From: Terriglobia bacterium
GTDB lineage: Bacteria > Acidobacteriota > Terriglobia > Acidiferrales > UBA7541
Assembly (NCBI GenBank): GCA_963757625.1
Contig: CAVWSJ010000002.1
Span: 4,954 to 68,953 of the forward strand
Reading direction: 5' to 3'
DNA length: 64,000 nt
Shown here piece after piece: positions 3,666-30,033 of the stretch. Every line of letters starts with the position of its first letter. Position 1 is the first letter of the stretch. The notes under the pieces are model-generated. The model did no database searches and was not told where the DNA came from. It was given only the letters and a program-made list of their open reading frames with translations. A program made the position numbers and the translations under genes.

Positions 3666-4037
3666 CTACGGCAGGATCTTCGCCGTCAGCGAGGCGCCGC
3701 CAGTGGAGGAAACAACTTTGGCGCGCAGGAATCGAGCGCGCACGCCTATCACGGTTCGCGCTTCCCCGGCGGTCGCCGTGGATGTATCAACCGTGGTGTA
3801 CTCGGCGTCAACGTCCGCCGCCGCGCCCTGCAAGAGAATATTGATCGCGGTGGGGGCGGTGCCGAAAATGGTTTGCCAGCGCACCGTGTGGCCCTGGTCG
3901 GGCAGCCCGGCGGGTTCGGGAATCGCGAATTGGGAGCCGGCCGTTCCGTTGGCCGGAAAACTTTCGGCGTTGAAACTGAATCCGACGTCGCCGGGAAATA
4001 GGGAAAGAGGCGGCGTTGCGTTATTATAAGCGGGCAT
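3666..4037 (-). CDS. Hypothetical protein (123 aa, beta-rich)
   Basis: Clean ORF with AGGAGGG just upstream of the ATG at 4037. It is the first gene of the minus-strand cluster. No recognisable motif. Confidence 0.5.
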   Translation of the reverse strand: MPAYNNATPPLSLFPGDVGFSFNAESFPANGTAGSQFAIPEPAGLPDQGHTVRWQTIFGTAPTAINILLQGAAADVDAEYTTVDTSTATAGEARTVIGVRARFLRAKVVSSTGGASLTAKILP

Positions 4038-4171
4038 GAGCCCTCCTGAAGATTCGGGGCGGGGTGCTTGCTGACCGCGAGGTCTAAAGTACGTGTGCTA
4101 ATTGCCGGTCCTGAGGCGATCCGTTCAGCTCGTGAAGTAGCCGGCGCGGGGCGCAGGGTCGAAGAGAAATG

Positions 4172-4205
4172 ACTTCAAATTTGAATTCTCAAATTCGAGA
4201 TTTGG
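4172..4205. repeat. AT-rich TTCAAATYT-type dispersed repeat (translates as FKFQISNLK-like)
   Basis: acttcaaatttgaattctcaaattcgagatttgg. Same family as 8341, 8966, 12347, 12529, 40367, 40471 and 43031. It is intergenic. Confidence 0.7.
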
Positions 4206-4423
4206 CCATCGCTCGTCCGGTGGGAGAAAGCGCCCCTAAATTAAAAGCGCCCGCCGGAGGTCGAACGGTGGCGGGCACAACGAAACGGATTCGAGTAACT
4301 GAAATTCTGCGAGAGTGAGAATAGCATAAGCGGTATTTATTTGTCAAGACATTTGTATAAAAATAATTCCTACGTCGCGAGCGGGCCTTTTTGCAGCCGC
4401 CCCCTATTGGAAGGAGATTGAAA

Positions 4424-4846
4424 ATGCGCTACACACTTCTGCTGAGCCTTCTGCTCCTCTTCGCCGGCGGCGCCGCCGCCCAGACGAAGCAGTCTGGCGC
4501 GCAAGACCAGCTCCCCATAAACTTTGTGCCCACCGGCAAGGAGATGTTCAAGCAATACTGCGCCGCTTGCCACGGCCTCGACGCCAAGGGCCACGGCCCC
4601 GCCCGATCCGCTCTTAAAGTTCCCGCCGCCGACCTGACCACTCTCACCAAACGCCATGGCGGCGAATTCCCTTACGACTACGTCTCCAACATCCTGAGGT
4701 TCGGCCCCGGCGTCGCCGCCCATGGCTCGTCCGACATGCCCACCTGGGGCGGCATTTTCCAGTACATGGACAACTACAACCAGCCCGTCGTCCAGAAGCG
4801 CATCAAAAACCTCTGCGACTACATCGCGTCGCTCCAGGAGAAGTGA
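4424..4846 (+). CDS. Class I c-type cytochrome (periplasmic)
   Basis: Signal peptide MRYTLLLSLLLLFAGGAAAQ, a CAACH haem-binding motif, and a distal Met in GSSDMPTWG. GGAGA-type SD lies at ~4412 before the ATG at 4424. Confidence 0.8.
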   Translation: MRYTLLLSLLLLFAGGAAAQTKQSGAQDQLPINFVPTGKEMFKQYCAACHGLDAKGHGPARSALKVPAADLTTLTKRHGGEFPYDYVSNILRFGPGVAAHGSSDMPTWGGIFQYMDNYNQPVVQKRIKNLCDYIASLQEK

Positions 4847-5153
4847 GCGCAGTTTGTCTTCGATCTCCGCCTCTTTACTTCCAAATCCTAAACGGGAGCG
4901 AGGCCAAGAATGGCCGTGCATGCGCATCGTCTGAGGGATGCCAGTCGACAGATTTAACACTCTGTTCTCTGTCAGCTCTTTCAGCCAAGCGATCCCCCAG
5001 TTCAAAGTATTTACTTACCTTTTAGCAAACCGCGCCAGTGATTCCTCGGCATTGATAATTGGCCCGCCGTTGAGGCACAATATCAACGAGCCTATACCAC
5101 TTATCTTTTGGTAACTTCATAAAAACATCGTTTTGATATACGCGGATGGTCTG

Positions 5154-9820: not shown

Positions 9821-10669
9821 GAAGCCATCTCATAAATGCCTCAGGAGGATAATGAGGCACCGAGTTGGAGCATGCCGAGGAAATTGGCTTCGTGATATTC
9901 CCAGCGGCTGACAAGTCGGCGGAAATTATGGAGCCAGGCAAAGAGGCGCTCGATTTTCCAGCGCCGACAATAGCGACGAAGTTCGCGACCGTCCTGGGTG
10001 CTCTTGCGGCAGCGGTTGTACTTGTGAGGCGCGATAAGCCGAATGCCGTGTTTTTGCCGGAGGCGCTGATCAAGCGGATCGCTGTCGTAGGCGCGGTCGC
10101 CGATCATTCGTTTTGGTTTGGCTCGCGTGAAACGCTGCGCGACGGTCGCTTCGACGAGTCTCGTTTCATGAGGCGAAGCGCTGGTGACGCAGCAGGCGAC
10201 AGGAAGACCATGGCGGTCTGCGATCGCCATGATTTTACTGCCTTTTCCTCGGCGAGTCGGGCCGACAGCAGCGCCCCTTTTTTCGCCGAACTGAAGCTGG
10301 CGTCGATGAACGTTTCCGACAGATCCAGTTTGCCGCGCGCCCGCAGGTCTTCGGCGAGCGCGTGCAAGAGCCGGTCCAGCGTACCGTCGCGCTGCCACTG
10401 CTGAAAGCGCCGGTGGCAGGTTTGATAGGGAGGATAGCGGTCGGGCAGATCGTGCCAAGGAGCACCCGTGCGCAAAACCCAAAGAACACCGTTCAGCACG
10501 GCTTGCGTATCGCGCCAAGGCCGACCTCGACCGTCGGAACGTCGCTTCGGAGCAAGCAGTGGCTTGAGTTTCTCCCACTGCGCCGCAGTTAGGTCCATGT
10601 TCCTGATTTACTCTTGTTTGCATAACTCGCAAGCTCGGAAAGACTTAAATGTGATTATGAGATAACTTC
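9821..10669 (-). mobile_element. IS5-family (IS427-group-like) insertion sequence, 849 bp, apparently intact
   Basis: Terminal inverted repeats are GAAGCCATCTCATAA (9821-9835) and the reverse complement of TTATGAGATAACTTC (10655-10669), 13/15 matching. TA flanks both ends (9819-9820 and 10670-10671). Two overlapping transposase frames carry an A6G slippery run. Confidence 0.8.
9841..10598 (-). CDS. IS5 family transposase, OrfA (10104..10598) and OrfAB fusion by programmed -1 frameshift
   Basis: OrfA reads LTAAQWEKLKPLL...GRPWRDTQAVLNGVLWVLRTGAPWHDLPDRYPPYQTCHRRFQQWQRDG. OrfB lies in the -1 frame and reads DRAYDSDPLDQRLRQKHGIRLIAPHK...RRWKIERLFAWLHNFRRLVSRWEY. AAAAAAG on the minus strand sits at 10283..10277, in the overlap. 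Confidence 0.85.
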
Positions 10670-10879
10670 TAGCAACTTAATGAGATAATCATACTTGAAT
10701 CGCGGAGAATGAGTTTGGCGGAGATATTTGATCGGCCGGCGTGAAGGCGATGACTAACGATGGCGGTGATTCTATGAGATGACTTCCGTTGGGCCGAGAC
10801 CGGAGCAGGGCCCAACGATTGAGGGATCTTGACACCTTGTGCAGATAGTAGAATAAGACACCGGGAAAAGGAATCGCAG

Positions 10880-12314
10880 ATGAAGATGCGGACGGAAAAG
10901 GATTCTCTGGGCCAGCGCGAAGTACCTTTTGCCGCGTATTATGGCATTCAAACACAGCGTGCGATGGATAATTTCCCGATCAGCGGTATCCGCGCACATG
11001 CACAATTGATTCGCGCGATGGGGATGATCAAAGAGGCCGCCGCGGCGGCAAATCGGGAATTGAAATTGCTCGATATCAGGCGAGCACGCGCGATCGTTCG
11101 TGCCGCGGAGGAGGTGATCGCCGGGAGGTGGAATGATCAATTTGTGGTGGACGTTTATCAGGCTGGAGCTGGCGTTTCGTTCCACATGAATGCGAATGAG
11201 GTCATCGCAAATCGAGCCATCGAGTTGCTCGGAGGCAAGCGAGGAGAATATCAAATTTGCCATCCGAACGATCATGTTAACTGTTCGCAATCGACAAATG
11301 ATGTGTTTCCGACTGCCATGCGCCTGGCCACTTTATTTCTATTCGGCGAAGTCCTCATCGCGCTGAAGGACCTCAAGCGATCCTTTGCACGGGAAGCGGA
11401 ATTATTTGATCACGTTCTCAAGTCCGGGCGTACGCACATGATGGATGCGGTGCCCATTCGATTGGGGCAGGAATTTGCGCGCTTATGCCACGGCGATGCG
11501 ACGTGTCGCCGTCCTTCTGAAGCAATCTGCAGGATTTGCTGCGCGAGATAGGACTCGGCGGTTCGGCGGTAGGAACGGGGGTGAACACGCATCCGAAATA
11601 TCAGAAACTCGTGGTCAAATACTTGAAGAAGATTTCGGGATGCGACCTTCGACCAACTGACGATTTGCGGTACGCCATGCAGTCCAATCTCGCCATGAGC
11701 GTGGCATCTTCCGCTCTGCGCAATCTGGCGCTTGAATTGATACGAATTAGCAATGATTTGAGGCTTTTATCGAGCGGGCCAAATACCGGGTTCGCGGAAA
11801 TTCGATTGCCCGCGTTGCAACCGGGTTCATCGATCATGCCCGGCAAGGTCAATCCGGTGATGGCCGAATTGACAGCGATGGTGGGGTTTCAGGTGTTTGG
11901 CGCGGATGCAGTCACGGCGATGGCTGTGCAAGCAGGCCAGCTTGAATTGAACGTAATGATGCCTGCGATGGCTTGGAACGTCCTCCACGCCGCGGAAATT
12001 TTGAAAAACACGATGAAGGTGCTGGCTACAAAGTGCGTCGAGGGTATTACTGCGAACGAGGAGCGATGCGCCTATTACGCAACGCCACGATTTCGATCGC
12101 TGCCGCCTTGAACCCCTACATCGGCTATGCGGCAGCGGCCGAGATCGCAAAGGAAAGCGTGAGGACTGGAAAGCCAGTTACGGAAATAGCGCTTGAACGG
12201 AAACTTCTGGACATAGGGACGATTGGGAAAATTCTTGATCCGATGCGAATGACTTCCCCAACTGCGCCTATTCGAAAGGCAGGCAAGGGACCAATAAAGA
12301 CGAAGCATCCGTGA
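10880..12314 (+). CDS. aspA: Aspartate ammonia-lyase (class II fumarase/aspartase family), frame broken twice
   Basis: REVPFAAYYGIQTQRAMDNFPISG, DQFVVDVYQAGAGVSFHMNANEVIAN, GEYQICHPNDHVNCSQSTND and the signature GSSIMPGKVNPVMAE. The gene is spread over ORFs 10829..11551, 11536..12111 and 11973..12314 (three frames). The ATG at 10880 follows an AAAGGAA SD. Confidence 0.8.
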
Positions 12315-12346
12315 GTTCCGGTGAGACATGCACAGGTTTGAGTAAA

Positions 12347-12377
12347 GAAATCGAAATTTGAGATTTCAGATTTCGGA
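12347..12377. repeat. AT-rich TTCAAATYT-type dispersed repeat
   Basis: gaaatcgaaatttgagatttcagatttcgga (reverse orientation of the family). Confidence 0.7.
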
Positions 12378-12528
12378 AAACGGACCGGGAGCGGTGCAAT
12401 TAGAGGTATCAGATCTGAATGAGCAGGCCGAGAAACAATCTTGCAGTGCTCCCCAATAAGATCGGACACCTCAATTCGGTAAGGTCCAAATCTCCCAACG
12501 GGAGGCAACGTGGGCAGGAACCCTCGCC

Positions 12529-12552
12529 TTGAAATTTGAATTGCAGATTTGA
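12529..12552. repeat. AT-rich TTCAAATYT-type dispersed repeat (short copy)
   Basis: ttgaaatttgaattgcagatttga. Confidence 0.6.
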
Positions 12553-12617
12553 GCGGGCGAGTCGGACCCAAGAACACGAGGATCGTCGAATCGTTTGAGG
12601 CGGATTGATATCTGGAA

Positions 12618-13085
12618 TTACGGGGCCACCGGGGCCTTTTCGAGCAGTTTTTCCTTGCGATAAATCAGGGCGTTGATGTTTGACGTGGCAAGCTCGAAGC
12701 CATGGCCATGCGTGATGGCGTCGGTTGGGCAGGCCTCCACGCAATAGCCGCAAAAAATACAGCGGGAATAATCAATATTGTAAACGCTCGCGTAGCGCTC
12801 ACCGGCGGAAATTCGCTGCGCGTCGGTATTTTCGGCGGCTTCGATATAAATGCAACGGGCGGGGCATGCGGCGGCACACAAGAAGCATCCGACGCATTTT
12901 TCCAGGCCGTTTTCGTCGCGATGCAGAACATGAATTCCGCGGTAGCGCGGTTGAAAGTGGACGGGTTCTTCGGGATAATTTTCCGTAACGGTTTTCCGCA
13001 GCATATTGCGGAACGTCACGCTGAAACCCTTTACCAGCGTGGCGAGCGTTTCGCCCGCTTCCTTGATCATCGATGGCATCGGCAT
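12618..13085 (-). CDS. nuoI: NADH-quinone oxidoreductase subunit I-like 2x[4Fe-4S] ferredoxin (orphan; no other nuo genes nearby)
   Basis: ENYPEEPVHFQPRYRGIHVL, CVGCFLCAAACP and CIFCGYCVEACPTDAI, in the NuoI arrangement. Confidence 0.75.
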   Translation of the reverse strand: MPMPSMIKEAGETLATLVKGFSVTFRNMLRKTVTENYPEEPVHFQPRYRGIHVLHRDENGLEKCVGCFLCAAACPARCIYIEAAENTDAQRISAGERYASVYNIDYSRCIFCGYCVEACPTDAITHGHGFELATSNINALIYRKEKLLEKAPVAP

Positions 13086-17930: not shown

Positions 17931-18103
17931 TCTGGGATTTAGGCCGATTCAACGTTTCCGGACCGGGGCTCCGCGCGGATTCTCCTTCACTTTCCGATGA
18001 TCGGACTCATCACATTTTTGAGGTTTGGAGGAGGCGGCGGGTCCTGTAAAATTCCATCGCACCAGACCCATGAGATTACAACCCCACCTCCGGAGACTCG
18101 ACC

Positions 18104-19606
18104 TTGGAGCACGCAAGCCGCTATTCGTTGTCAGCGATAGGAAAACGTCTGAACCGCGCACGGCCCCTCTTGGTTGGTGCAGCAGCGGTCTGCCTGCTTG
18201 TTTCGGTCGCCTTATACAACGGTTATCCGACCGTTTTCTCGGATACTGGCGGCTATCTTTTGACCGGGACAACTTTTGTTGCATTCCCGCCGTTCCGCGC
18301 CCCTGGCTACAGCGTATTCACCAGGCTCGCTAGTCTCGAAACCAGCGCCTGGTTCATCATTCTGGCGCAGGCGCTCACTGTCGTCTATGTGCTGCAGGAA
18401 ACCTGCAATTACTTGATTGAGGGTGACGCAAAGATCCGCGATCTTTGCCTGCTTGCCGGCGTTTCAATCCTCGCGGCCTTTACCAGCCTCCCGTGGCTGG
18501 TTTCGCTGCTCATGCCTGACGTTTTCGCGGGAGTGATATTTCTGTCGGCATTTTTGCTGGTGTTCAACGATGATCTGCTCCGCACCCGGCGAATCGCGCT
18601 CGCTGCAATTTTATGGATCTCGGTTAGCTCTCACATGTCATTTCTGCCGATCGCGGGGCTATTTATTCCCGTCCTTCTCGCCATGAAATTTGCAGCGCGC
18701 CGGACGCAACCCGCGCCATCGGCGAAGTCGATCCTGGGCTGGGTGCTCGTCCCGGTCATCGCTTCCGGAATTTTCACCGCCACGTTGAATCGCGAGATGG
18801 GCCTCGGATTCACGGTTTCACCGTCGCGAAATGATTTCATGCTGGCAAATCTGTTTGGTGACAGCCTGGCGGCCGACTACTTGAAGCAGGATTGTCCGAA
18901 GGATCGTCTTGTTTCGTGCCGCGATCTTTCCAGGCTTCCGCAGTCGGCGGAGGAATTCTTGTTTCGGCATCCGTTGTATATCGAACTCCGGAAGCACCCC
19001 GCGGAGATAGACAAAATTGTGCGCGGGACACTCTCCGCCTACCCGCAGCAGTTTCTGGAGAGCAGCGCCAGGCAGACGTTCTTTCAGATAGCTTCCCTGC
19101 GGACGGCGGACGAAATACGCTCCTACGGCGCCAAAGACTGGAATAATCACGCGCTGCAAAGCGTCTTCCCCGGCGAAATTCAGGACTTCCGGAAGGGCAG
19201 GCAATTTCGCGACCGCTTGCTTCCTCTGGCCGACGCCGCATCGAAAGTGGACACCGGGGCATTCTGGCTCAGCGCCGCAGCCTGCCTGCTGCTCGCCGGG
19301 ATCAGCGGGTTCAGTCGCATAAACATGCTCTTCTATTCGTCGATTCTATTCCTCGCGATCAATGCGGCAATTTGCGCCACGTTCGCCGGAGTATTTGACC
19401 GTTACCAGAGCCGTGTGGCATGGATCATGCCCTTCTGCCTCACCGCCTATGTTTTGTGCTGGGTCAGAGAGTGGAAACGCAGCGGCGTCCGCGACAGCTC
19501 CACCACCGCCGATTACGAATTCGAACCCTCGCTGCCCGCCGACTTGGGAACTTATGCAGGACCCGGCCAGGTTTCATTCACGAGCGAGGTTCAAGAAGAA
19601 TCCTGA
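18104..19606 (+). CDS. Polytopic membrane protein, possibly a GT-C-type glycosyltransferase
   Basis: Many predicted TM segments, an early DTGGY loop motif and a large soluble loop. TTG start with GGAG 8 nt upstream. The function is a guess. Confidence 0.4.
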   Translation: MEHASRYSLSAIGKRLNRARPLLVGAAAVCLLVSVALYNGYPTVFSDTGGYLLTGTTFVAFPPFRAPGYSVFTRLASLETSAWFIILAQALTVVYVLQETCNYLIEGDAKIRDLCLLAGVSILAAFTSLPWLVSLLMPDVFAGVIFLSAFLLVFNDDLLRTRRIALAAILWISVSSHMSFLPIAGLFIPVLLAMKFAARRTQPAPSAKSILGWVLVPVIASGIFTATLNREMGLGFTVSPSRNDFMLANLFGDSLAADYLKQDCPKDRLVSCRDLSRLPQSAEEFLFRHPLYIELRKHPAEIDKIVRGTLSAYPQQFLESSARQTFFQIASLRTADEIRSYGAKDWNNHALQSVFPGEIQDFRKGRQFRDRLLPLADAASKVDTGAFWLSAAACLLLAGISGFSRINMLFYSSILFLAINAAICATFAGVFDRYQSRVAWIMPFCLTAYVLCWVREWKRSGVRDSSTTADYEFEPSLPADLGTYAGPGQVSFTSEVQEES

Positions 19607-20941: not shown

Positions 20942-21695
20942 GTTGGATAACCTCCAGGGCCAGCTTCCCGTACTCCTTCGCGCCGGGTGATTTGGGCGCA
21001 AAGGTCATGATCGTTTCTTTGTAGGCTGGGCTCTCCTCCAGTCGCACATTCTTGCCGATCCGCGTCTTGAACAGCACCGAGCCGAACACAGAGCGTATTT
21101 GCTCATGCGTATCGCGGGAGATGTTGGTTCGCTTGTCGAACAGCGTGATGAGCACGCCGAGAACTTTCAGCCCAGGATTAGGGCGCGCGCGAATTCTCTC
21201 GTAGGTTTCCAGCAAATCGTCGGTGCCCTCGATCGCAAAATAGGCGGCCTGAATAGGGACCAGCAGGTGCGTCGACGCCACCATGGCATTCACGGTGATG
21301 ATGCCCAGCGCCGGGGGCGTGTCGATGACAATATAGTCGTAATCCTTCGCGATGGGCGCGAGCGCGTCTTTCAACTTGAAAGGCGCGTCAAACTGCCCGG
21401 CCAGCTGCTGCTCGAGCTTCGCCAGCGCCAGCCGCGCCGGAGCCACCGAAAGCATCGGGTCTTTCGTCACCTTGATGACGCCCGCGAGTTCGGCGCGATG
21501 GTCGCCCAGCACGTCAAACATGGAACCCTGAATGTCGGCGGTCTCAAAAAAAGAAATGCTGGCGTTGGCTTGCGGGTCGAGGTCGATCAGGAGAGTTTTC
21601 TTTTTGCGTTGAGCGATGGCGGCAGCGAGGTTGATGGCAGTGGTGGTCTTCCCCACGCCGCCTTTCTGATTGGCAATGGTCAGGATGGCGGTCAT
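20895..21695 (-). CDS. parA: ParA/Soj partition ATPase
   Basis: ILTIANQKGGVGKTTTAINLAAA is the deviant Walker A; also LLIDLDPQANAS and IVIDTPP. An alternative start is ATG 21710. Confidence 0.9.
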   Translation of the reverse strand: MTAILTIANQKGGVGKTTTAINLAAAIAQRKKKTLLIDLDPQANASISFFETADIQGSMFDVLGDHRAELAGVIKVTKDPMLSVAPARLALAKLEQQLAGQFDAPFKLKDALAPIAKDYDYIVIDTPPALGIITVNAMVASTHLLVPIQAAYFAIEGTDDLLETYERIRARPNPGLKVLGVLITLFDKRTNISRDTHEQIRSVFGSVLFKTRIGKNVRLEESPAYKETIMTFAPKSPGAKEYGKLALEVIQRVEEDRIARHAEDAA

Positions 21696-22062
21696 AAACG
21701 GCCCGGGCATTTCAGCACGGGCTAAAAGCCTCCTAGAGCGGGAACATGTTCGCCGAAGCCACTCTTGGATGCAGCACCATCTCGTCGGCCAAGACCAATG
21801 TTCGGGACGATGCCGACGTCAACACCAAGAAAAGTGAAGGCGAAGGCGAATCCGCTCAACCCCCAGCGTAAGACAATCTACTCGTCCGGTTGCTTGAGTG
21901 CAAGCAAAAAAGCAGTTGCTGAATTTCCAGGACGACAAAGCGATTCCTAGAAGCGGGCAAAACGAGACTCTCGTTCACAGTCAGTCTTCCCAGGGACCTT
22001 ACCCACTTGCCGAAATTGATCCATTCAGTAATGATACCTCTTTCCGTAAGGACAAACTACCG

Positions 22063-23448
22063 ATGCTAACAGGGTTGAGCCTAGCGAATTTCAAGGCCTG
22101 GAGGGATACGGGACCGGTGCGCCTCGCACCGATAACCGTATTCTTCGGTAACAACAGTTCAGGTAAGAGCAGCCTGCTTCAATATCTTCTCATGCTGAAG
22201 CAAACTGCAGAATCGCCCGACCGCCACCGTGCACTTCACCCAGGGGATCGGAACACGCCGGTTGAACTTGGAACTTATCGTGACCTAGTATTCAATCACG
22301 ACATATCTCAGGAAATTCGATTTAGCCTCGAATGGCTGTTGCCGGACTCTCTGTTTGTCTGGGATCCCCTTAGTCGAGAGAGTTTCACAGGAAGGTCAGT
22401 TAGTTTTTCTGCGACTATAGCTGCGGACGCGAAAGGCGCACGACAATGGGTCCGAGAGTTTCAATATACTCTTAGGGACGCGGGCAAGCCGCCAATCGGT
22501 GTGAAGTTTGGTGTGGCGGACGACAAGAGCAGCACTAAATATGAGCTTTCCGCCACGAACTACAAACTGGTTCGAAATCAGGGTCGGGTTTGGAAGCTCC
22601 CTGGCCCAATTCGTTACTACGGCTTTCCCGACGAAGTCGGTGCTCACTTCCAAAACGCTGGCTTTACGAGCGATCTCGCATTGGCGCTTGAGCAGCAGCT
22701 TAAGCGACTACAATATCTCGGTCCACTTCGAGAGTATCCCGAGCGTTCCTACGTCTGGTCGGGAGAAGTACCGGAGCACGTCGGCTGGCGCGGCGAAAGA
22801 GCTGTAGAAGCGATGCTAGCTGCGGCGTCACGGCATATCAGCCCAGGCTATCACCGTCAAGCGCGCCCGTTTCAGGCAGTGATTGCTCGTTGGCTGCAAC
22901 AGCTGGGGTTGCTGGACTCCTTCGAAGTACGCCCCATTGCGGAACACCGAAAAGAATACGAGGTGGGAGTGCGAACACATGGAGCCGAGCACACAGTCCC
23001 CCTACCCGACGTCGGGTTCGGGGTCTCCCAGGTCTTGCCTGTTATCGTAGAGTGTTTTTATGCGGAGCCGAACACCACTATTATTCTCGAACAGCCCGAG
23101 ATCCACCTGCACCCGAGCGTGCAAACAGCCCTTGCGGACCTATTCATTGAAACAATGCAGTCGCGAGAAGGCGGAGCAGACCGCCGGATTCAACTTATCG
23201 TTGAAAGCCACTCGGAGCACTTCCTCAGAAGGCTTCAGCGGCGGCTTGCCGAAAAAGTTGTTAAACCCGAGGACGTGGCCCTTTATTTCTGTGAGGTAGG
23301 TGATCAAGGCGCATCATTACGCCCACTCGAAGTCGATCTCTATGGTGAAGTCAAGAATTGGCCAGAAAATTTCTTTGGCGACGAGATGGGTGAACTCGCT
23401 GCTCGCATGGAAGCTGCGGCCCGAAGTGAGGAAGCGAATAAACAGTGA
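22063..23448 (+). CDS. ABC-type (AAA_15/21-like) ATPase with DUF3696-like C-terminus
   Basis: LANFKAW...ITVFFGNNSSGKSSLLQ (Walker A), YLGPLREYPERSY, DVGFGVSQVLPVIV, IILEQPEIHLHP (Walker B-like), LIVESHSEHFLRRLQ (H-loop), and C-terminal NWPENFFGDE. The ATG at 22063 is preferred over the GTG at 21898. The frame is intact. Confidence 0.75.
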   Translation: MLTGLSLANFKAWRDTGPVRLAPITVFFGNNSSGKSSLLQYLLMLKQTAESPDRHRALHPGDRNTPVELGTYRDLVFNHDISQEIRFSLEWLLPDSLFVWDPLSRESFTGRSVSFSATIAADAKGARQWVREFQYTLRDAGKPPIGVKFGVADDKSSTKYELSATNYKLVRNQGRVWKLPGPIRYYGFPDEVGAHFQNAGFTSDLALALEQQLKRLQYLGPLREYPERSYVWSGEVPEHVGWRGERAVEAMLAAASRHISPGYHRQARPFQAVIARWLQQLGLLDSFEVRPIAEHRKEYEVGVRTHGAEHTVPLPDVGFGVSQVLPVIVECFYAEPNTTIILEQPEIHLHPSVQTALADLFIETMQSREGGADRRIQLIVESHSEHFLRRLQRRLAEKVVKPEDVALYFCEVGDQGASLRPLEVDLYGEVKNWPENFFGDEMGELAARMEAAARSEEANKQ

Positions 23449-23981
23449 CGATACCCCGGGGCCGAACTCCGTACGTCGTTGACACTAATGTGGCCGTAGT
23501 CGCCAACAGAACCGGAGGTGAATCCTACGGCTGCGCCAGCGCGTGCAGTCAGGCATTGCTTAAGATCCGCAGTTCCGGGGTCTTAGTATTGGACGAAGGA
23601 CGTAGGATTCTTAGCGAATATTTCCGGATTTGCGCACCCTTTGCAAAACCCGGAATGGGAAACGCCTTTGTCAAATGGGCTCATGACAACCAGGGCAAAT
23701 ATGATCTGGTTCAAACCGTTGCGATCACCCCCCTAGCGGACGATCCAACCAATTTCGCCGAATTCCCAACGCACGATGACTTAGCTGAATTTGACCCTTC
23801 CGACCGAAAGTTTGTCGCGGTGGCTACCGCGCACCCGGAAAACCCGTCCATATTGCAGGCGACCGATTCGAAATGGTGGGGATGCAGGACCGCCCTGTTC
23901 GAATGCGGGATCGTAGTTAAGTTCCTTTGTCCTGCCGAAATCAAAAAGGTTTACGAGCGTAAGTTTGGCGAGCTTACCTGA
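23445..23981 (+). CDS. PIN-like domain protein (predicted nuclease), translationally coupled to the ATPase
   Basis: The GTG overlaps the ATPase stop as GTGA (23445-23448). Acidic positions are spaced as in PIN domains: YVVDTNVAVVAN, VLVLDEGRRIL, FDPSDRKFVAVA, QATDSKWW. The fold assignment is unverified. Confidence 0.55.
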   Translation: MTIPRGRTPYVVDTNVAVVANRTGGESYGCASACSQALLKIRSSGVLVLDEGRRILSEYFRICAPFAKPGMGNAFVKWAHDNQGKYDLVQTVAITPLADDPTNFAEFPTHDDLAEFDPSDRKFVAVATAHPENPSILQATDSKWWGCRTALFECGIVVKFLCPAEIKKVYERKFGELT

Positions 23982-24141
23982 AGGCAAGAATTCGACTTCC
24001 TCCTTCGGACACGGCTGAGCATCCGGCCCACTTCCCTCCGGGAAAAGGACAAACGCCTTTGCGTTGAAGCCAAAGTGTCAGGCTGGATTGTATTCAGGCA
24101 ACCTTCCTTTGACTTATGCACCCAAACGAAAACTCAAGACT

Positions 24142-24162
24142 AGACACACTTAAGACTGTATT
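24142..24162. terminator. AT-rich hairpin between convergent genes (weak terminator candidate)
   Basis: aagactg-tattaat-cagtctt, a 7-bp stem with a 7-nt loop. There is no clear U-tract on either strand. Confidence 0.25.
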
Positions 24163-24170
24163 AATCAGTC

Positions 24171-24656
24171 TTACATCTTATATCGCCCGAGGTCCTCGTC
24201 GGAGAGGCCTTCGAGCCATTTGCGGAGTTCTTCGCTGGTGGATTTTTCGGAGATGGCGCTGGAAATTTTGGAGCTTTTCAGAACTTCGTCCTCGACGAAA
24301 ATGGGGCAATCGACGCGCAGGGCCAGCGCCAGGGCGTCGCTGGGGCGCGAATCGATGGACATGATCTCGCCGTTGCGCTCCACCCAGATCAGCGCGTAGA
24401 ACGTGTCGTCCTTCAAATCGTTGACGACCACTTTCTGCACGCGCACATCGAGACCCAGGAAAACGTTGCGCAGCAGATCGTGCGTCATCGGGCGCGGCGT
24501 CTGCACTTTTTCAATTTCGAGCGCGATGGCATTGGCTTCATAGATGCCCACCCAGATCGGAAGCACCGCGGTGCCCTGCGCATCCTTGAGCACAACGATG
24601 GGCATGTTGGTGACCGGGTCCATCATGAGTCCGCGGATTTTCATTTCCACTTCCAT
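24171..24656 (-). CDS. Bifunctional nuclease (BFN, DUF151) family protein
   Basis: MPIVVLKD....VLPIWVGIYEANAI, RPMTHDLL, YALIWVERNGEIMSIDSRPSDALALALRVDCPIFV. ATG 24656 follows GGGAGG. The ORF extends up to 24683. Confidence 0.8.
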   Translation of the reverse strand: MEVEMKIRGLMMDPVTNMPIVVLKDAQGTAVLPIWVGIYEANAIALEIEKVQTPRPMTHDLLRNVFLGLDVRVQKVVVNDLKDDTFYALIWVERNGEIMSIDSRPSDALALALRVDCPIFVEDEVLKSSKISSAISEKSTSEELRKWLEGLSDEDLGRYKM

Positions 24657-24679: not shown

Positions 24680-26101
24680 TCATACTACTTGCTCACCGAC
24701 CAGGCTGTTGGGAGCTGCGCCGGTCACGCGCACATGAACATATTGTCCCAAAAGGTCCGAGCGCGGCGAAGTGAAATTTAGGATGCGGTTGCTGGAACTG
24801 CGACCTGACCATTGGCCGGGCGCCTGCCGGCGAGGCAGGGCGCCGGGATGCCCCATCCACCAGCACTTCAAACGTTTCGCCGACCAGCGCCTCATTGCGC
24901 GCGATCTGAATTTCGCGCTGGCGATCTTGCAGCACGGCCAGCCTGCGCCCCTTCTCTTCTTCGGGAATCGCATCGGGCATGTGCAGCGCGGTCGTATTCG
25001 GCCGCGGCGAATACTGGAATGCAAACACGCCGTCGTACTGCGCGGCATCGAGCAGGCTGAGAGTCTCCTCAACATCCTGCTCGGTCTCTCCGGGAAACCC
25101 ACGATGATGTCGGAGGTCACGCTGATGGGACGCCGGGCCGCGCGGATCATGGCAATCTTTTCGAGATATTCCTCGCGCGTGTACGTGCGTTGCATCGCGC
25201 GCAGAATGCGCGTCGATCCGGATTGCACCGGCAGGTGGATGTGATCGCACAGCTCCGGCACGGAATCGATCGCCTCGACAATGTCCTGCCCGAAGTCTCG
25301 CGGGTGCGACGTCGTGAAGCGCACGCGCCGAATTCCGGGCACCGCCGCCACGGCGACGAGAAGTTCCGCGAAACTCATTCGCTTTGGCGACGGGTCCCGG
25401 TAGGAATTGACGGTCTGCCCGAGGAGCTGAATTTCCGAGTATCCCGCGTCCGCCAGTTTGCGCACTTCTTCCAGAATCAGACGCGCTCGAACGGCTGCGC
25501 TCCGGCCCTCGCGTGTACGGCACGACGCAGTAGGAGCAGGATTTGTCGCAGCCTTCGATGATGGTCAGATAGGCGCGGAACGGATTGTCGCGCCGCGTCA
25601 TTTCCGTCTCAAAGGTTTCGTCGGTATCGTTGTCGAGGCCCATCACGCGGCGATTCCCCGATTCGAGTTCGGCGATAAGTTCCGGCAGTTTGCTGTAGCT
25701 GGCCGAGCCGCAGACCAGGCTCACCCAGGGCGCGCGCTCGAAGATTTCTTCGCCTTCCTGCTGCGCGACGCAACCCAGGACGCCGATGATTTTTCCGATG
25801 GTCCGGATGTTTCCGATACGTCCCCAGCCGCGAGAAAACCTTTTGCGCGGCCTTTTCCCGGATGCTGCACGTGTTGTAGAGCACCAGCTTTGCCGCGTCG
25901 ACGCTGTCCATTTGCCGGTACCCGCGCCCGAGCAGGACTCCGGCGACTTTCTCGGAGTCGTGATCGTTCATCTGGCAGCCGAATGTCTCGATGTAGAACG
26001 TGCGATCTTCCGCCGGGGGCGCGGCTGCACTCGCGCCATTCTGCGGATCGCAAGTCCGGACCGGTCAAATCGTCGACGCGGAAATCGAATGGTTGCGGCA
26101 T
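24680..26101 (-). CDS. miaB: tRNA-i6A37 methylthiotransferase MiaB, frame broken at least 5 times
   Basis: FYIETFGCQMNDHDSEKVAG, LYNTCSIREKA, IIEGCDKSCSYCVVPYTRGPERS (radical-SAM CxxxCxxC), FTTSHPRDF, HLPVQSGS, IVGFPGETEQD and a TRAM-like end. The pieces are distributed over all three minus frames (ORFs 25721..26239, 25609..25971, 24693..25724, 24680..25465). Confidence 0.85.
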
Positions 26102-26355
26102 GATCTCTGCTCCAAATAGTATCACAGTCGATGGAGGTCGATTCGCGGGCGTCGCCGTCGCTTGTACAATTATTCCCCGAGGAATCGGGGTTCTCCACGA
26201 AGTACAATCTCCTCGCGGCTGCGATTCCAGTTTCATCAAACTTAGTCGCTGAGCAAACCCTCGTACCGGCGCCGATCATCTAAGACAATAGAATATGAAA
26301 ATAAGGTACACATAAGGAGCCCATCGAGGCGGGCGCGCCGCAGCCAACGCTCGCC

Positions 26356-26385
26356 TTGACAATACATCGTAATACGATGTATCAT
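26356..26385 (+). promoter_or_regulatory. Candidate sigma-70-type promoter with an embedded palindrome, upstream of tolQ
   Basis: TTGACA (26356-26361), an 18-nt spacer, then TATCAT (26380-26385). The spacer holds the palindrome tacatcg-taata-cgatgta. Confidence 0.35.
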
Positions 26386-26522
26386 TCAGTTGAGACACAA
26401 TCGAGCACTTTCGTGCCTGTAATTGTTTGACCCCATTTTGAGCGTGTGCTAGGTTGCCCGTTGGGGCTATCGATCGGCTTTCTGAGGGGGAGACAATTCC
26501 ACTACCTGGGTTTTTGCTGTTC

Positions 26523-27195
26523 GTGGGCCAACTGGGCACGCTGCTGGAGCAAACGGGATGGGTTGCTCGCGTCGTGCTCGCCATGCTGTTGGGTTTTTCG
26601 CTTTTTTCCTGGGCGCTGATTTTTCAGAAGTCGCGCATGTTCTCGCGAATGAATCAGCAAACCGCGCTTTTCCTGCGAATTTTCCGCTCCAATCGGATTC
26701 TTCCCGACCCGAAACAGATGGGTGCAGGCGGTTCTCCGCTCGAACCCGTCTACACCGCCGGATATCGCGAAGTGGAAAGCCAGACTGCGCACCGGAAATC
26801 CGCACGGCAAAATTACCAGCCTGAACGCCGTGACCGTGAGCATGCAGCTGGCCGCCGCCGAAGAAGTCCGCAAAGCCGAAAAATATATGTCCTGGCTGGC
26901 GACCACGGGCTCGGTTACGCCTTTCATCGGCCTGTTCGGCACGGTGTGGGGCGTGATGGATGCATTTACCGGCCTGGGAACCGCCGGGGCGGCGAGTTTG
27001 CGCGCGGTTGCTCCCGGCATTGCCGAAGCCTTGATCACAACGGCGGCGGGGCTATTCACCGCGGTTCCCGCCGTGATCGCCTACAACCACTTTTTGCACG
27101 ACATCAAGGATCTGGGCGCGCGAATGGATGGCTTCACGATGGAAGTCGTCCGCTGGTTGAAAAACTATATCCCGAATTCAGCGGGGGTAATGTGA
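26523..27195 (+). CDS. tolQ: Tol-Pal system protein TolQ (MotA/TolQ/ExbB channel), one frame break
   Basis: The N-terminal TM (VVLAMLLGFSLFSWALIF) is in ORF 26454..27227. The conserved core (WLATTGSVTPFIGLFGTVWGVM, GIAEALITTAAGLFTAVPAVIAYN) is in ORF 26722..27195. The GTG start at 26523 is a guess. Confidence 0.8.
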
Positions 27196-27238
27196 AATGG
27201 ACTTCGCGGATATTCTGCTCGCGATAAAGTAAACGAAT

Positions 27239-27655
27239 ATGCCGCAGCTTTCTCGCCAAACCGGGACTTCCCTTTCGGACATCAATATTGTCCCTTTCGT
27301 GGACGTCATGCTGGTTCTGCTGGTGATTTTCATGATCACCGCGCCGATTCTGCAGTCCGGCATCGAGGTGGACGTCCCGAAAACAAAGACGGTCAAGGAA
27401 ATTTCCGAATCGCGCGTGGTGGTTTCGATCGACCGCGCGCAGCGAATTTACATTGGCGACGATCCGGTCAATATCCACGAACTGGGAGACAAGGTGCACG
27501 CGCAAATGCACAATCCGCAGGGCGAACCTATTTACCTGCGCTGCGATAAGACCGTTCCCTTCGGTTCGTTCGCGCTGGTGGTGGACACGTTGCGGCAATC
27601 CGGCATCCAAAATATCAGCGTCGTCACGGAGCCGCTGGACGAAACTCCGCACTAA
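27239..27655 (+). CDS. tolR: Tol-Pal system protein TolR (ExbD/TolR family)
   Basis: SDINIVPFVDVMLVLLVIFMITAP, with the typical length and operon position. Confidence 0.85.
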   Translation: MPQLSRQTGTSLSDINIVPFVDVMLVLLVIFMITAPILQSGIEVDVPKTKTVKEISESRVVVSIDRAQRIYIGDDPVNIHELGDKVHAQMHNPQGEPIYLRCDKTVPFGSFALVVDTLRQSGIQNISVVTEPLDETPH

Positions 27656-27661
27656 GACCTT

Positions 27662-28462
27662 ATGTCCTATGCCCCCGCCCATCCCGGCGCCGAAAGCCTG
27701 AAGAAGCCCTTGGTGTGGTCGCTCGGGTTCCATGTGATTCTGTTCAGCTCGCTGCTGGTTTCCACATTGCTTTCGCAGCGCGGGGATTCCTGGGGAGGCC
27801 TCGGCGGCGACAACGCAGTGTCGGTCGGGCTGGTCGGCAAGCTTCCGGGAGTCAATCTGCCCCGCCCCGAAGCCGTAACGCACAAGCCGCGTGGTCGATA
27901 CCAGCAAGGGTCTATACAAAGTCCGAACCGCCGCCGAAACCAAAGGAAATCGAGACACGAACGCAAAAAAAATTCCGGAATTCACCAAGGAAAAGGCGCC
28001 CCATTACGTCACACGCCCATCCAAGATACTTGAGGACACGACCCCTCCTCCCCCGAATGCCGTTCCCTACGGTGCAGGGCGGCGCGCCCGCGCTGCCGTA
28101 CTCGCAGTTCACGATGAACGGCGCGACGCAGGGAGGGATGGGATTCACTGGCCCGGGAGGCGGAGATTTCGCCGGGAGATTCCCCGCCTACGTGGATGCC
28201 GTGCGCAACCGCATCAGCAGCAATTGGCTGCAGTCCACGATGGACCCGTCGGTTCGCTGGGCGCCGCGCGACGCAATTTACGTTCCAGATCCTGCGCGAC
28301 GGCACGGTCACGAACGTGCAGCTCACGCAATCCAGCGGCAACCGTTCGGTGGACAACTCGGCTCTGCGCGCCATTTTGAGTTCGAGCCCGGTGTCGGCAC
28401 TTCCGTCGAATTATTCCGGGAGCAGCGTAACCGTCGAGTTTTGGTTTGAGTTTCGCCGGTAG
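27662..28462 (+). CDS. tolA: TolA / TonB-C-terminal-domain protein, frame broken at least 3 times
   Basis: N-terminal TM (LVWSLGFHVILFSSLLV), a Pro/Lys-rich linker, and a C-terminal TonB_C-like stretch (AYVDAVRNRISSNW...FQILRDGTVTNVQLTQSSGNRSVDNSALRAI). The gene is spread over ORFs 27662, 27891, 27715 and 28196. Confidence 0.65.
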
Positions 28463-28510
28463 CATCACGACCCGGTGGTAGAGCTGGCTCGGGTCTGACA
28501 CAGAAGGTGG

Positions 28511-29911
28511 ATGAATGATCGGACAAGATTCGGGCGTCGCAAAGATTCCCTGAGAAAAATCGGTCTGTGGCTTTATCTGTGTCTATCTGTGTTCATCTGT
28601 GGTTTCGTTTCCCTTCTTTCCGCTCCGGCCTGCGTCCGCGCAAGATTGGTTCCGAACCGGCACGGGACTGGGCGTTACGAAACCGCGCGTCGCCGTGGCG
28701 GATTTTGCGCCCAAGTCCCCGACCTCGCAGCCGCTTGGCAGTCGAATTCAGCGATGTCGTGCGCGCCGACCTTGATTACAGCGGCATCCTCGAACTGGTG
28801 AGCAAGAGCTTTAATCCGCTGCAGTCCCCGGCGTTCTCCGGCGGAAGTGGACTTCAAGGCCTGGTCCGACGCGTCCCGCGTCCGCGCAACTTCTGGCCTT
28901 CGGCAACCTCTCCGCAAGCGGCAACAGCCTGGAGATTCAAGCCTGGCTGAACGATGTGCGCAATTCCTCCCTGCCTCCGGTCATCGGAAAAGTTTATCGC
29001 GGCGAAGTCAAGCGACGCGCAGGTCCGCATCTTCGCGCACCAGTTCGCTGACGAGATCATCGGCAAGCTATCCGGCGGTTTGCCGGGCATCGCCAGCACG
29101 CAGATCGCGTTTGTGAGCAATCGAAGCGGCAACAAGGAAATCTGGGCGATGGATTACGACGGCGAAAACCAGCACCAGATTGACGCAGCTCCACACGATC
29201 TCGCTCACGCCGCGCTGGTCGCCCGACGCCTCGCGCATTGCCTTCACCTGTTATGCGCCGCGCAGCGGCAGCGTGCTGACCGCTCAGATTTGCATCCAAT
29301 CGATGCTGACCAACCATCTGATTTCCTGGCCGCGCTTTCAGGGCACAAACTCCTCGCCCGCCTGGTCGCCGGACGGATCGCAAATCATGTTCATGTCCAG
29401 CATGTACGGCAATCCGGAATTGTTCATGACCGATGCCTCGGGCGGCCACCCCAAGCGCCTCACGTATTCCAACGGCGCGAACACTTCTCCGTCCTGGAAT
29501 CCGAAGACCGGCCAGCAGGTCGCGTTTGTCAGCGACCGCGGCGGCATTCCGCAGCTCTACACCATGAACGCGGACGGATCGAGCCAGACGAAAGTGGACT
29601 TGCCCGACATGGGATACGTCATTGATCCGGCGTGGTCCCCCAACGGCCAGTTGCTGGCATTCAGTTGGCGGCGCCCAAACGGAAATTACGATCTCTACGT
29701 GATGGAAATCGTCACGCACCAACTGGTGGAACTGACGCGCGATGCCGGGCGCAACGAACGCCCGAGCTGGGCGCCGGACGGGCGCCATATCGTTTTCGAA
29801 TCCACCCGCACGGGAACGCGGCAAATCTGGTCCATGCTCGCGGACGGAACCGAGGCCCGGCAGCTGACCAAGCAGGGACAGAATGAATCCCCCAACTGGT
29901 CGCCGAAATGA
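28511..29911 (+). CDS. tolB: Tol-Pal system beta-propeller protein TolB, frame broken at least 6 times
   Basis: RVAVADF, AVEFSDVVRADLDYSGILELV, IFAHQFADEIIGKLSG..GIASTQIAFVSNRSGNKEIWAMDYDG, then propeller repeats (SPAWSPDGSQIMF, SPSWNPKTGQQVAFVSDRGG.PQLY, PAWSPNGQLLAF, RPSWAPDGRHIVFES). The exact start is uncertain. Confidence 0.8.
28561..28607. repeat. IRVHPW-type dispersed repeat unit overlapping the 5' end of tolB
   Basis: cggtctgtggctttatctgtgtctatctgtgttcatctgtggtttcg is related to the units at 2273-2412. In the tolB frame it reads GLWLYLCLSVFICGFV. Confidence 0.55.
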
Positions 29912-30033
29912 TTCGAGTTCCGGAGGATTTCGTGATTCACGATCAGCAACGTTTGTTTTGGAAAGGTCTGAGATCGTGTATTTGCACTCACTACACATGC
30001 TCCGGTAAATTCCTAAAGGAGGAAGAAGAAAAG

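Follow-up and report, generated by a model that had tools for sequence, protein, structure and literature searches.

A divergent HEC-03-type ATPase and PIN-like gene pair, probably an acquired anti-phage module, in a Terriglobia chromosome

What kind of system is encoded by two overlapping genes, one for an ATP-binding cassette (ABC) ATPase and one for a small PIN-like protein, that lie among the housekeeping genes of a Terriglobia bacterium? The pair occupies positions 22063-23981 of a stretch of 64,000 nucleotides (nt) from contig CAVWSJ010000002.1 (assembly GCA_963757625.1), the whole of which is referred to here as the window. A previous sequence-only reading had taken it for a candidate defence-type module that it could assign to no named system, and for the best candidate for a novel system in the window. 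We found that the defence-type interpretation stands, whereas the claim of novelty does not: the pair is a new, divergent member of HEC-03 (Hma-embedded candidate 03), a system composed of an ABC ATPase and a PIN-domain protein (Payne et al, 2024; bioRxiv 10.1101/2024.01.29.577857). We consider it likely that a Terriglobia ('Acidiferrales'-like) chromosome acquired here, by horizontal transfer, an anti-phage module of HEC-03 type that consists of two genes.

A PADLOC profile search of the two proteins placed both in HEC-03 over their full length. The ATPase matched PDLC04148 with an E-value of 7.7e-129 (428.7 bits; residues 1-454 against profile positions 1-450 of 458), the next best PADLOC families scoring 198 bits, and the PIN-like protein had PDLC04147 as its sole PADLOC match (E 1.1e-27, 95 bits; residues 10-165 against profile positions 3-154 of 159). 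For the published HEC-03, two genes of Pseudomonas cichorii ATCC 10857 were cloned and introduced for expression into Escherichia coli. There the pair reduced the plaquing of several coliphages, in at least two cases by orders of magnitude, both genes were needed, and over-expression upon induction with isopropyl β-D-1-thiogalactopyranoside was toxic (bioRxiv 10.1101/2024.01.29.577857). The tested pair corresponds to WP_025259138.1 and WP_025259137.1, encoded at 322707-324092 and 324079-324552, both on the plus strand. By BLASTP, the window ATPase was 40% identical to the tested ATPase (E 1e-95, over its first 399 amino acids), and the window PIN-like protein 34% identical to the tested PIN protein (E 4e-24). 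Every feature of HEC-03 that can be assessed in silico was present, namely both profiles, adjacency, the ATPase-first order and homology to the tested pair. As HEC-03 is already named and tested, and both window proteins match its profiles, the pair falls under a system that was known before, and the claim that it is a novel one is refuted.

In the window pair as in the tested pair, the gene for a DUF3696 ABC ATPase comes first and overlaps a small PIN-like gene. Common to both ATPases are the Walker A motif, an E-Q Walker B, GFG and ESHSEH, and common to both PIN proteins are (D/E)TN, DD, EY, DPSDRKF and D(S/T)(K/D)W. They differ in that the window PIN protein is 21 amino acids longer, and in that the tested copy is found in the Hma system of a gammaproteobacterium, while the window copy stands alone between parA and a gene for a bifunctional nuclease (BFN) protein in an acidobacterium. 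The A and B names are swapped between sources: in PADLOC, HEC-03A is the PIN protein and HEC-03B the ATPase, whereas in the preprint text HEC-03A is the ATPase. The practical outcome is that the correct label for the locus is HEC-03 defence module, and that a divergent soil acidobacterial example, 34-40% identical to the only tested HEC-03, is now available with its insertion breakpoints exactly mapped.

The features of the operon are as follows.

21734-22062, plus strand: non-coding leader, which presumably holds the operon's promoter, with AAGGA near the ATG.
22063-23448, plus strand: ATPase gene, with an AAA_15/AAA_21 core and C-terminal DUF3696 (PADLOC PDLC04148, Pfam, BLASTP and AlphaFold2 model).
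23428-23448, plus strand: coupling junction, consisting of the ribosome-binding site GAGGAAG and the GTGA overlap, read from the sequence.
23445-23981, plus strand: PIN-like effector gene (PADLOC PDLC04147, BLASTP and AlphaFold2 fold).
24151-24173, plus strand: weak terminator-like hairpin where the PIN and BFN genes converge, from a consensus scan only.

According to the listing of open reading frames (ORFs), the ATPase gene encodes 461 amino acids from an ATG start, within an open frame of 21898-23448, and the PIN-like gene encodes 178 amino acids from a GTG start. The NCBI/ENA gene call gives the 461-amino-acid form of the ATPase, and one Logan gene call gives a 516-amino-acid form. The start at 22063 was preferred because position 1 of the PADLOC profile aligns to residue 1, homologues begin there, and the NCBI/ENA call agrees. 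An AAGGA (22048-22052) lies ten nt 5' of this ATG, and a Shine-Dalgarno-like GAGGAAG (23428-23434) lies ten nt before the GTG of the PIN gene, within the end of the ATPase gene. The GTG (23445-23447) and the TGA (23446-23448) together form a GTGA start/stop overlap at 23445-23448. An independent Logan contig of 2554 bp, L001, reproduced window positions 21668-24221 at 99.96%, with one mismatch and zero gaps, and spanned both junctions of the acquired segment described below. The description of two intact, overlapping plus-strand genes in the sequence-only reading was thus corroborated, as was the position of every motif that it listed for the two proteins.

To what extent the two genes form a unit was assessed in a scan of one genome per species, which yielded 479 loci from many phyla, 80 of which were kept. 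In 79 of the 80 genome loci, a same-strand DUF3696 ATPase gene lay directly upstream of the PIN gene; the one exception was a locus cut by a contig end. Overlaps were counted over 80 loci (77 genome loci and three fetched by protein look-up): stop and start overlapped by exactly 4 nt in 58 and to some extent in 68. Order, strand and start/stop overlap were kept across phyla, in agreement with the expectation that homologues of the two genes co-occur as an adjacent pair. By comparison, parA, parB, BFN, miaB or other window neighbours were shared by none of 84 homologous loci. The neighbours found around 21 randomly chosen loci included PglX and PglZ of BREX (two loci each), DISARM/Hma-like genes, Ppl and a type IIG restriction-modification enzyme. 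These neighbours fit the published picture of HEC-03 as embedded in defence systems. Plasmids of Aeromonas, Azotobacter and Rhodococcus, of conjugative and mobilisable types, carry further copies; for phage-borne copies, only partial matches of ~30% were found, in Klebsiella phages.

The plasmid copies bear on a different explanation, in which the pair would be a toxin-antitoxin-like addiction module that stabilises mobile DNA rather than defending against phages, with a VapC-like PIN toxin and the ATPase as its neutraliser. In Aeromonas pAsa9-like plasmids the homologues adjoin Hok/Gef and AbiEii, induced HEC-03 is toxic, toxin-antitoxin pairs are typically coupled this tightly in translation, and the window pair is alone among housekeeping genes. 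However, there is no small DNA-binding antitoxin of VapB type, the partner being a 461-amino-acid ABC ATPase whose nucleotide site is fully conserved. Moreover, the tested homologue lowers phage plaquing by orders of magnitude, and some homologues lie within BREX or DISARM/Hma-type loci. We regard an addiction module as improbable, although addiction and defence roles do not exclude each other.

Several observations weigh against the assignment of the window pair to an active HEC-03 module. Identity to the tested HEC-03 is only 34-40%, and protection has been shown for the P. cichorii pair only. A preprint of September 2026 still describes HEC-03 as a system whose activity has been demonstrated and whose mechanism is undescribed. 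A consensus scan found no sigma-70-like site for the operon, whose promoter is for this reason inferred rather than shown; in the same type of scan, terminator-like sites were no more numerous than in shuffled sequence. A Pfam scan of the neighbours found no defence genes adjacent to the window copy, which is not in a defence island, so that the anticipated co-occurrence with such islands holds for some homologues, beside BREX, DISARM/Hma-like genes and Ppl, and fails for the window copy. Finally, the PIN-like protein had no Pfam match above threshold, the closest being PIN_3 (E 0.081; 14.2 bits against a cut-off of 27), and in a Foldseek search of its AlphaFold2 model nearly all of the top 18 matches in the PDB were PIN domains with weak scores (E 0.009-0.19; template modelling score 0.36-0.60).

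Other evidence supports the proposal that gene 2 is PIN-like and has acidic positions spaced as in PIN nucleases. PIN_3 was the only recurrent Pfam family among 40 homologues, being found in 7 (best E 0.0017). The AlphaFold2 model is of high confidence (pLDDT, predicted local distance difference test, of 94.1), and the named fold matches were SMG6, PAE0151, VapC11, VapC1, HARP (RNase P) and VapC20, with E-values of 0.009-0.09 and template modelling scores of 0.37-0.60, weak as scores and yet of a consistent kind. The tested HEC-03 PIN protein was likewise reported to be similar to a VapC, 6A7V (bioRxiv 10.1101/2024.01.29.577857). A profile of the PIN-like family gave nothing real against the sequences of solved structures. 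The motifs of gene 2 are VVDTNV (residues 11-16), LDEG (49-52), DPSDRKFVAVA (117-127) and ATDSKWW (139-145). When conservation was scored over 82 sequences, position 13 was Asp in 81 and Glu in one, and D50, E58, D117, D120 and D141 were invariant in all 82. Residues D13, E58, D120 and D141 match the D-E-D-D order, spacing and secondary-structure positions of PIN domains, as judged from the sequence and the secondary structure of the model. On the model, D13 follows strand 1, E58 lies in the helix 54-62, D120 is at the start of the helix 118-129, and D141 comes after the strand 135-138. Three cysteines, C30, C34 and C162 (23532-23534, 23544-23546 and 23928-23930), which are non-canonical for PIN and could be a metal or redox site, were kept in 81-82 of the 82 sequences, the tested protein included.

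The PIN-like family gave 1930 hits when clustered at 90%; at 50% identity and E <= 1e-10 there were 1141 clusters, nearly all of which consist of stand-alone proteins of 160-185 amino acids. Of the 150 best representatives, nearly all had 130-200 amino acids, and none was a genuine fusion resembling NsnC, the PIN-containing protein of the Menshen system. Two candidate fusions were discarded: a repetitive surface-type protein of 3796 amino acids (P0364) that scored spuriously through 38 weak repeats, and a protein of 479 amino acids (P0437) in which the C-terminal two thirds of the ATPase are fused to the PIN protein, apparently by a frameshift-type event.

With regard to the ATPase, all three Pfam models named in the sequence-only reading scored above their gathering thresholds: AAA_15 (E 3.6e-23; 83.2 bits against 32.1), AAA_21 (E 5.7e-21; 76.3 bits against 27) and DUF3696 (PF12476; E 1.2e-11; 45.1 bits against 22). 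The best PDB match of its AlphaFold2 model (pLDDT 86.7) was PtuA of the Septu PtuAB complex (8eea, E 7e-12), and retron-associated PtuA, GajA, Rad50 and SMC heads also matched, in the range of E 1e-10 to 1e-12. By sequence, only the Thermus OLD protein 6p74 was found among solved structures (E 4.6e-4). Conservation was scored over 75 homologues and distinguished the following features, all on the plus strand.

22147-22173: Walker A / P-loop GNNSSGKSS, residues 29-37; G29, N31, S32, G34, K35 and S37 invariant in 75 of 75.
22714-22734: YLGPLRE, residues 218-224; R223 invariant.
23008-23049: signature-like DVGFGVSQVLPVIV, residues 316-329; G318, F319, G320 and Q323 invariant.
23083-23115: Walker B region ILEQPEIHLHP, residues 341-351; E343, Q344, P345 and E346 invariant in 75 of 75.
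23203-23220: H-loop-like ESHSEH, residues 381-386; E381, H383, S384, E385 and H386 invariant.
23263-23400: DUF3696 C-terminal region, residues 401-446 (Pfam PF12476); putative site at which the PIN protein docks.

The Walker B dyad of the ATPase is E343-Q344 (23089-23094) and not the canonical D-E of ABC ATPases. Q344 stands at the position of the catalytic glutamate, since ILEQPEIHLHP aligns to 'IIEEPEMYLHP' of Thermus OLD 6p74, where this position is the second E of EEPE, and the tested HEC-03 ATPase has E-Q as well (FMEQPEIHLHP). In engineered ABC ATPases, a change from E to Q stops hydrolysis and leaves ATP-dependent dimerisation. Because Q344 occupies the catalytic position and E-to-Q changes behave in this way, the sequence suggests that the HEC-03 ATPase would be an ATP-binding switch with slow or poor hydrolysis rather than a motor. 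In the signature-like motif DVGFGVSQVLPVIV, G-x-G stands where ABC ATPases have SGG. Within DUF3696, the segment NWPENFFGDE (residues 432-441) has W433, P434, F437, F438 and G439 invariant or nearly so.

Outside HEC-03, the nearest named ATPase was NsnB of Menshen, whose profile matched the whole length of the window ATPase (E 9.3e-59, 198 bits). According to a 2025 analysis, NsnB has E-N in place of the Walker B D-E, Arg in place of the Q motif and GxG in place of SGG, and carries a DUF3696 C-terminal helix; in AlphaFold3 models, paired tails clamp the N-terminal PIN-like domain of NsnC (PMC12065111). NsnB-like derived features are present in the window ATPase as E343-Q344, R223, G318-F-G320 and the DUF3696 tail, all invariant in the 75 homologues, and R223 of YLGPLRE is probably the counterpart of the arginine that replaces the Q-loop glutamine in NsnB. 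The likeness to Menshen therefore comprises the DUF3696 tail, the derived ATPase motifs and a partner that begins with a PIN fold, and by analogy the window pair probably works like Menshen at the interface of ATPase and PIN protein. The partners differ: the PIN-like domains of NsnC are inactive and followed by a C-terminal toxin or nuclease, whereas the window protein is a single domain of 178 amino acids that keeps its acidic residues.

These parallels could be taken further: the system might be Menshen-like, with a PIN-fold protein that serves only as an adaptor or to bind RNA, while the killing is done by something else. The NsnB match over the whole ATPase, its derived Walker B, arginine, GxG and DUF3696 tail, and the PIN-like fold at the start of NsnC partners would all be expected in such a case. 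Yet there is no NsnA, the neighbouring ParB being a partition protein; the protein has no C-terminal toxin, and its acidic residues, which are lost in the PIN-like domains of NsnC, are invariant in the family; and the NsnB profile reaches 198 bits where that of HEC-03 reaches 429. We therefore judge the adaptor explanation very improbable and retain HEC-03 as the identity of the pair.

Assignment to the other named systems was also rejected. Menshen itself requires NsnA (ParB-DUF262), which a Pfam scan of the neighbours did not reveal: the sole neighbouring ParB has the ParB_N and HTH_ParB domains of a canonical partition protein, is encoded on the opposite strand and belongs to the conserved backbone. 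Gene 2 also lacks an NsnC profile match and a C-terminal nuclease or toxin domain. Septu PtuA-PtuB and the PtuAB of retron Ec78/Eco7, where the ATPase model finds its best solved match, have an oligomeric ABC ATPase whose C-terminal region binds a small nuclease, but their effector is an HNH and not a PIN protein, and they have no DUF3696. The NCBIfam PtuA model gave 15 bits against a cut-off of 500, and no PtuB (HNH) gene was present in 21.7-24.2 kb. PARIS (AriA-AriB) and Gabija (GajA-GajB) have an ABC ATPase of OLD type (AAA_15/AAA_21), which in these systems is the sensor of infection and governs a nuclease, but with TOPRIM domains as effectors; PARIS is reported to end in tRNA cleavage. 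The AriA and GajA profiles matched only residues ~297-389 of the window ATPase, and there was no AriB or GajB gene in 21.7-24.2 kb. As for VapBC, the window protein resembles it in its predicted PIN fold with an acidic site of D-E-D-D type, the best fold matches including VapC11, VapC1 and VapC20, whereas the large ATPase encoded upstream, scores short of the Pfam PIN thresholds, and the conserved Cys30, Cys34 and Cys162 set the window protein apart. No VapB was found, the gene upstream of the PIN gene being that of the 461-amino-acid ATPase, with no other ORF in the acquired segment.

How might a HEC-03 module of this kind work? Unlike NsnC, the PIN protein of the window retains the acidic residues and bears no toxin domain in addition, so that the nuclease is probably this protein itself. 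In the mechanism that we propose, the ABC ATPase would act as sensor and keeper and the PIN protein as effector. The ATPase would form dimers or tetramers whose C-terminal DUF3696 tails hold the PIN protein inactive, translational coupling serving to fix the ratio of ATPase to PIN protein. A cue from the phage, sensed through the variable inserts of the ATPase while it is bound to ATP, would then release or activate the PIN domain, which as a Mg-dependent nuclease of VapC/SMG6 type could cut RNA (tRNA, rRNA or mRNA), so that translation would halt and the infection abort. The scheme draws on the likeness to PtuA and GajA, both of which are ATPases that hold or regulate a nuclease. The DUF3696 tail is proposed as the docking site because AlphaFold3 models of NsnB-NsnC show clamping by the tail. 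RNA appears a likelier substrate than DNA, as the nearest folds are the RNases VapC, SMG6 and HARP, and an RNA ligase is coupled to the pair in about a third of loci. Two considerations count against parts of this scheme: the docking model is taken from predicted and not solved Menshen complexes, and PIN-like folds also include DNA 5'-nucleases.

The RNA ligase (PF09414) is encoded by a third gene of 225-235 amino acids in 26-28 of the 80 genome loci and on plasmids of Azotobacter and Aeromonas, and usually overlaps the stop codon of the PIN gene by 4 nt. Its motifs are intact, namely motif I KxDG (EEK-DGAN), EG-YLR and RAK-VRP. One such three-gene operon, of an Aeromonas pAsa9-like plasmid, encodes WP_005321439/436/423. 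Representative ligase genes are the following, and about 22 more loci have one.

L009, 8501-9187: RNA ligase gene.
L057, 8528-9217: RNA ligase gene.
L004, 8525-9199: RNA ligase gene.
L089, 10927-11619: RNA ligase gene.
L090, 7928-8629: RNA ligase gene.

Among the closest relatives of the window operon, ligase-positive and ligase-negative operons are interleaved. In the window itself, tblastn detected no RNA ligase or remnant of one downstream of the PIN gene or elsewhere (nothing below E 0.06). The ligase matched no PADLOC model, and the ligases of this family had no match among the sequences of solved structures. The word 'ligase' is absent from the main text of the HEC-03 preprint and 'RNA ligase' from the Menshen paper (PMC12065111); a link between HEC-03 and Menshen is described in neither. 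At the level of the family, the coupled RNA ligase in about a third of loci, the invariant E-Q Walker B and the motifs shared with NsnB may be new points.

The ligase suggests another explanation. Instead of serving immunity, the pair could be an RNA processing and repair module, in which a programmed cut by the PIN protein is resealed by the ligase under control of the ATPase, the window copy being a derivative without the ligase. In favour of such a role, roughly one third of the loci, and plasmids as well, couple a ligase with intact motifs to the PIN gene. Two thirds of the loci, the window and the active two-gene system that was tested are nonetheless without a ligase, the window shows no ligase remnant, the distribution is patchy, mobile and strain-specific, and some homologues have defence neighbours. 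We give very little credence to a non-immune role, and an anti-phage function remains the preferred interpretation. A bolder variant of that interpretation, which we consider doubtful though worth stating, is that the pair represents the shared ancestral core of HEC-03 and Menshen, in which a hydrolysis-poor clamp cages an active PIN RNase and immunity is achieved by repairable RNA cleavage and not by suicide. A coupled ligase would then reseal the target, and the two-gene forms would use host repair or simply kill the cell. The invariant Walker B glutamine, the motif kinship with NsnB and the PIN-coupled RNA ligase provide handles on the mechanism of HEC-03, and as family features they point to an RNA target and an ATP-binding switch.

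Horizontal acquisition was examined by blastn against four relatives (L085-L088). The BFN protein encoded downstream of the pair has relatives that are 89-99% identical, one of them from a Candidatus Acidiferrales. The window shares with its relatives a backbone of tolB-tonB-exbD-tolQ, miaB-BFN, a slot, and parA-parB-109-aa ORF-sixA-ppx-tmk. Homology of this backbone ends at window position 21733 and restarts at 24170/24172, and the contents of the slot differ between strains.

Window, 21734-24169, no strand assigned: inserted segment of 2436 bp that carries the HEC-03 pair.
L085, 7567-8583, and L086, 7501-8424 (BFN 96-98% identical): a thioredoxin/AhpC-type redoxin gene in the slot.
L087 and L088 (BFN 89% identical): slot empty, with a spacer of 171 bp.

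The slot between BFN and parA is thus a variable site, and the HEC-03 segment is strain-specific. The GC (guanine plus cytosine) content of 21734-24169 was 0.532 against about 0.59 in the flanks, and that of third codon positions was 0.54 and 0.59 in the two genes of the pair against 0.73-0.78 in parA, parB, BFN and ppx. Breakpoints and composition together substantiate the low-GC insertion among housekeeping genes that had been noticed in the sequence. As to the means of insertion, repeats flanking 21.4-24.5 kb, whether direct or inverted, were only short matches at chance level; no Rfam hits occurred in 19-27 kb; no tRNA marking the ends of the segment was found; and no integrase or transposase ORF was seen in the ORF listing for 17-29 kb.

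Foreign composition, together with the lack of a promoter-like site and the many broken genes in the surrounding assembly, might suggest that the pair is an inert passenger, recently acquired and unexpressed or non-functional in this host. Both ORFs are intact, however, with all family-invariant residues kept, and an independent assembly reproduces the sequence of the pair; we find an inert passenger scarcely credible. The broken genes lie in 24680-30000, where miaB, tolQ, a tonB/tolA-like gene and tolB, all intact in L085-L087, are split over two or three frames, probably through assembly indels and possibly as pseudogenes. Local sequence quality is uneven, as these broken frames show, while the HEC-03 pair, parA, parB and BFN are intact and the pair itself is confirmed by L001.

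Some further features of the surroundings were observed. Backbone homology stops 23 nt upstream of the parA start codon (21711-21733), which places the promoter region of parA-parB in acquired DNA, divergent from the HEC-03 operon. GC as low as in the HEC-03 segment (0.524-0.53 in 2.4-kb windows) was also found at about 3800-5000 and 10400-13000, where ORFs are short and fragmented. A second strain-specific segment, 17933-19579, lies between sixA and the 109-aa ORF, which are adjacent in L085 and L086; its ORF of 500 amino acids (18104-19606) had no Pfam hit and by eye has the look of a membrane protein.

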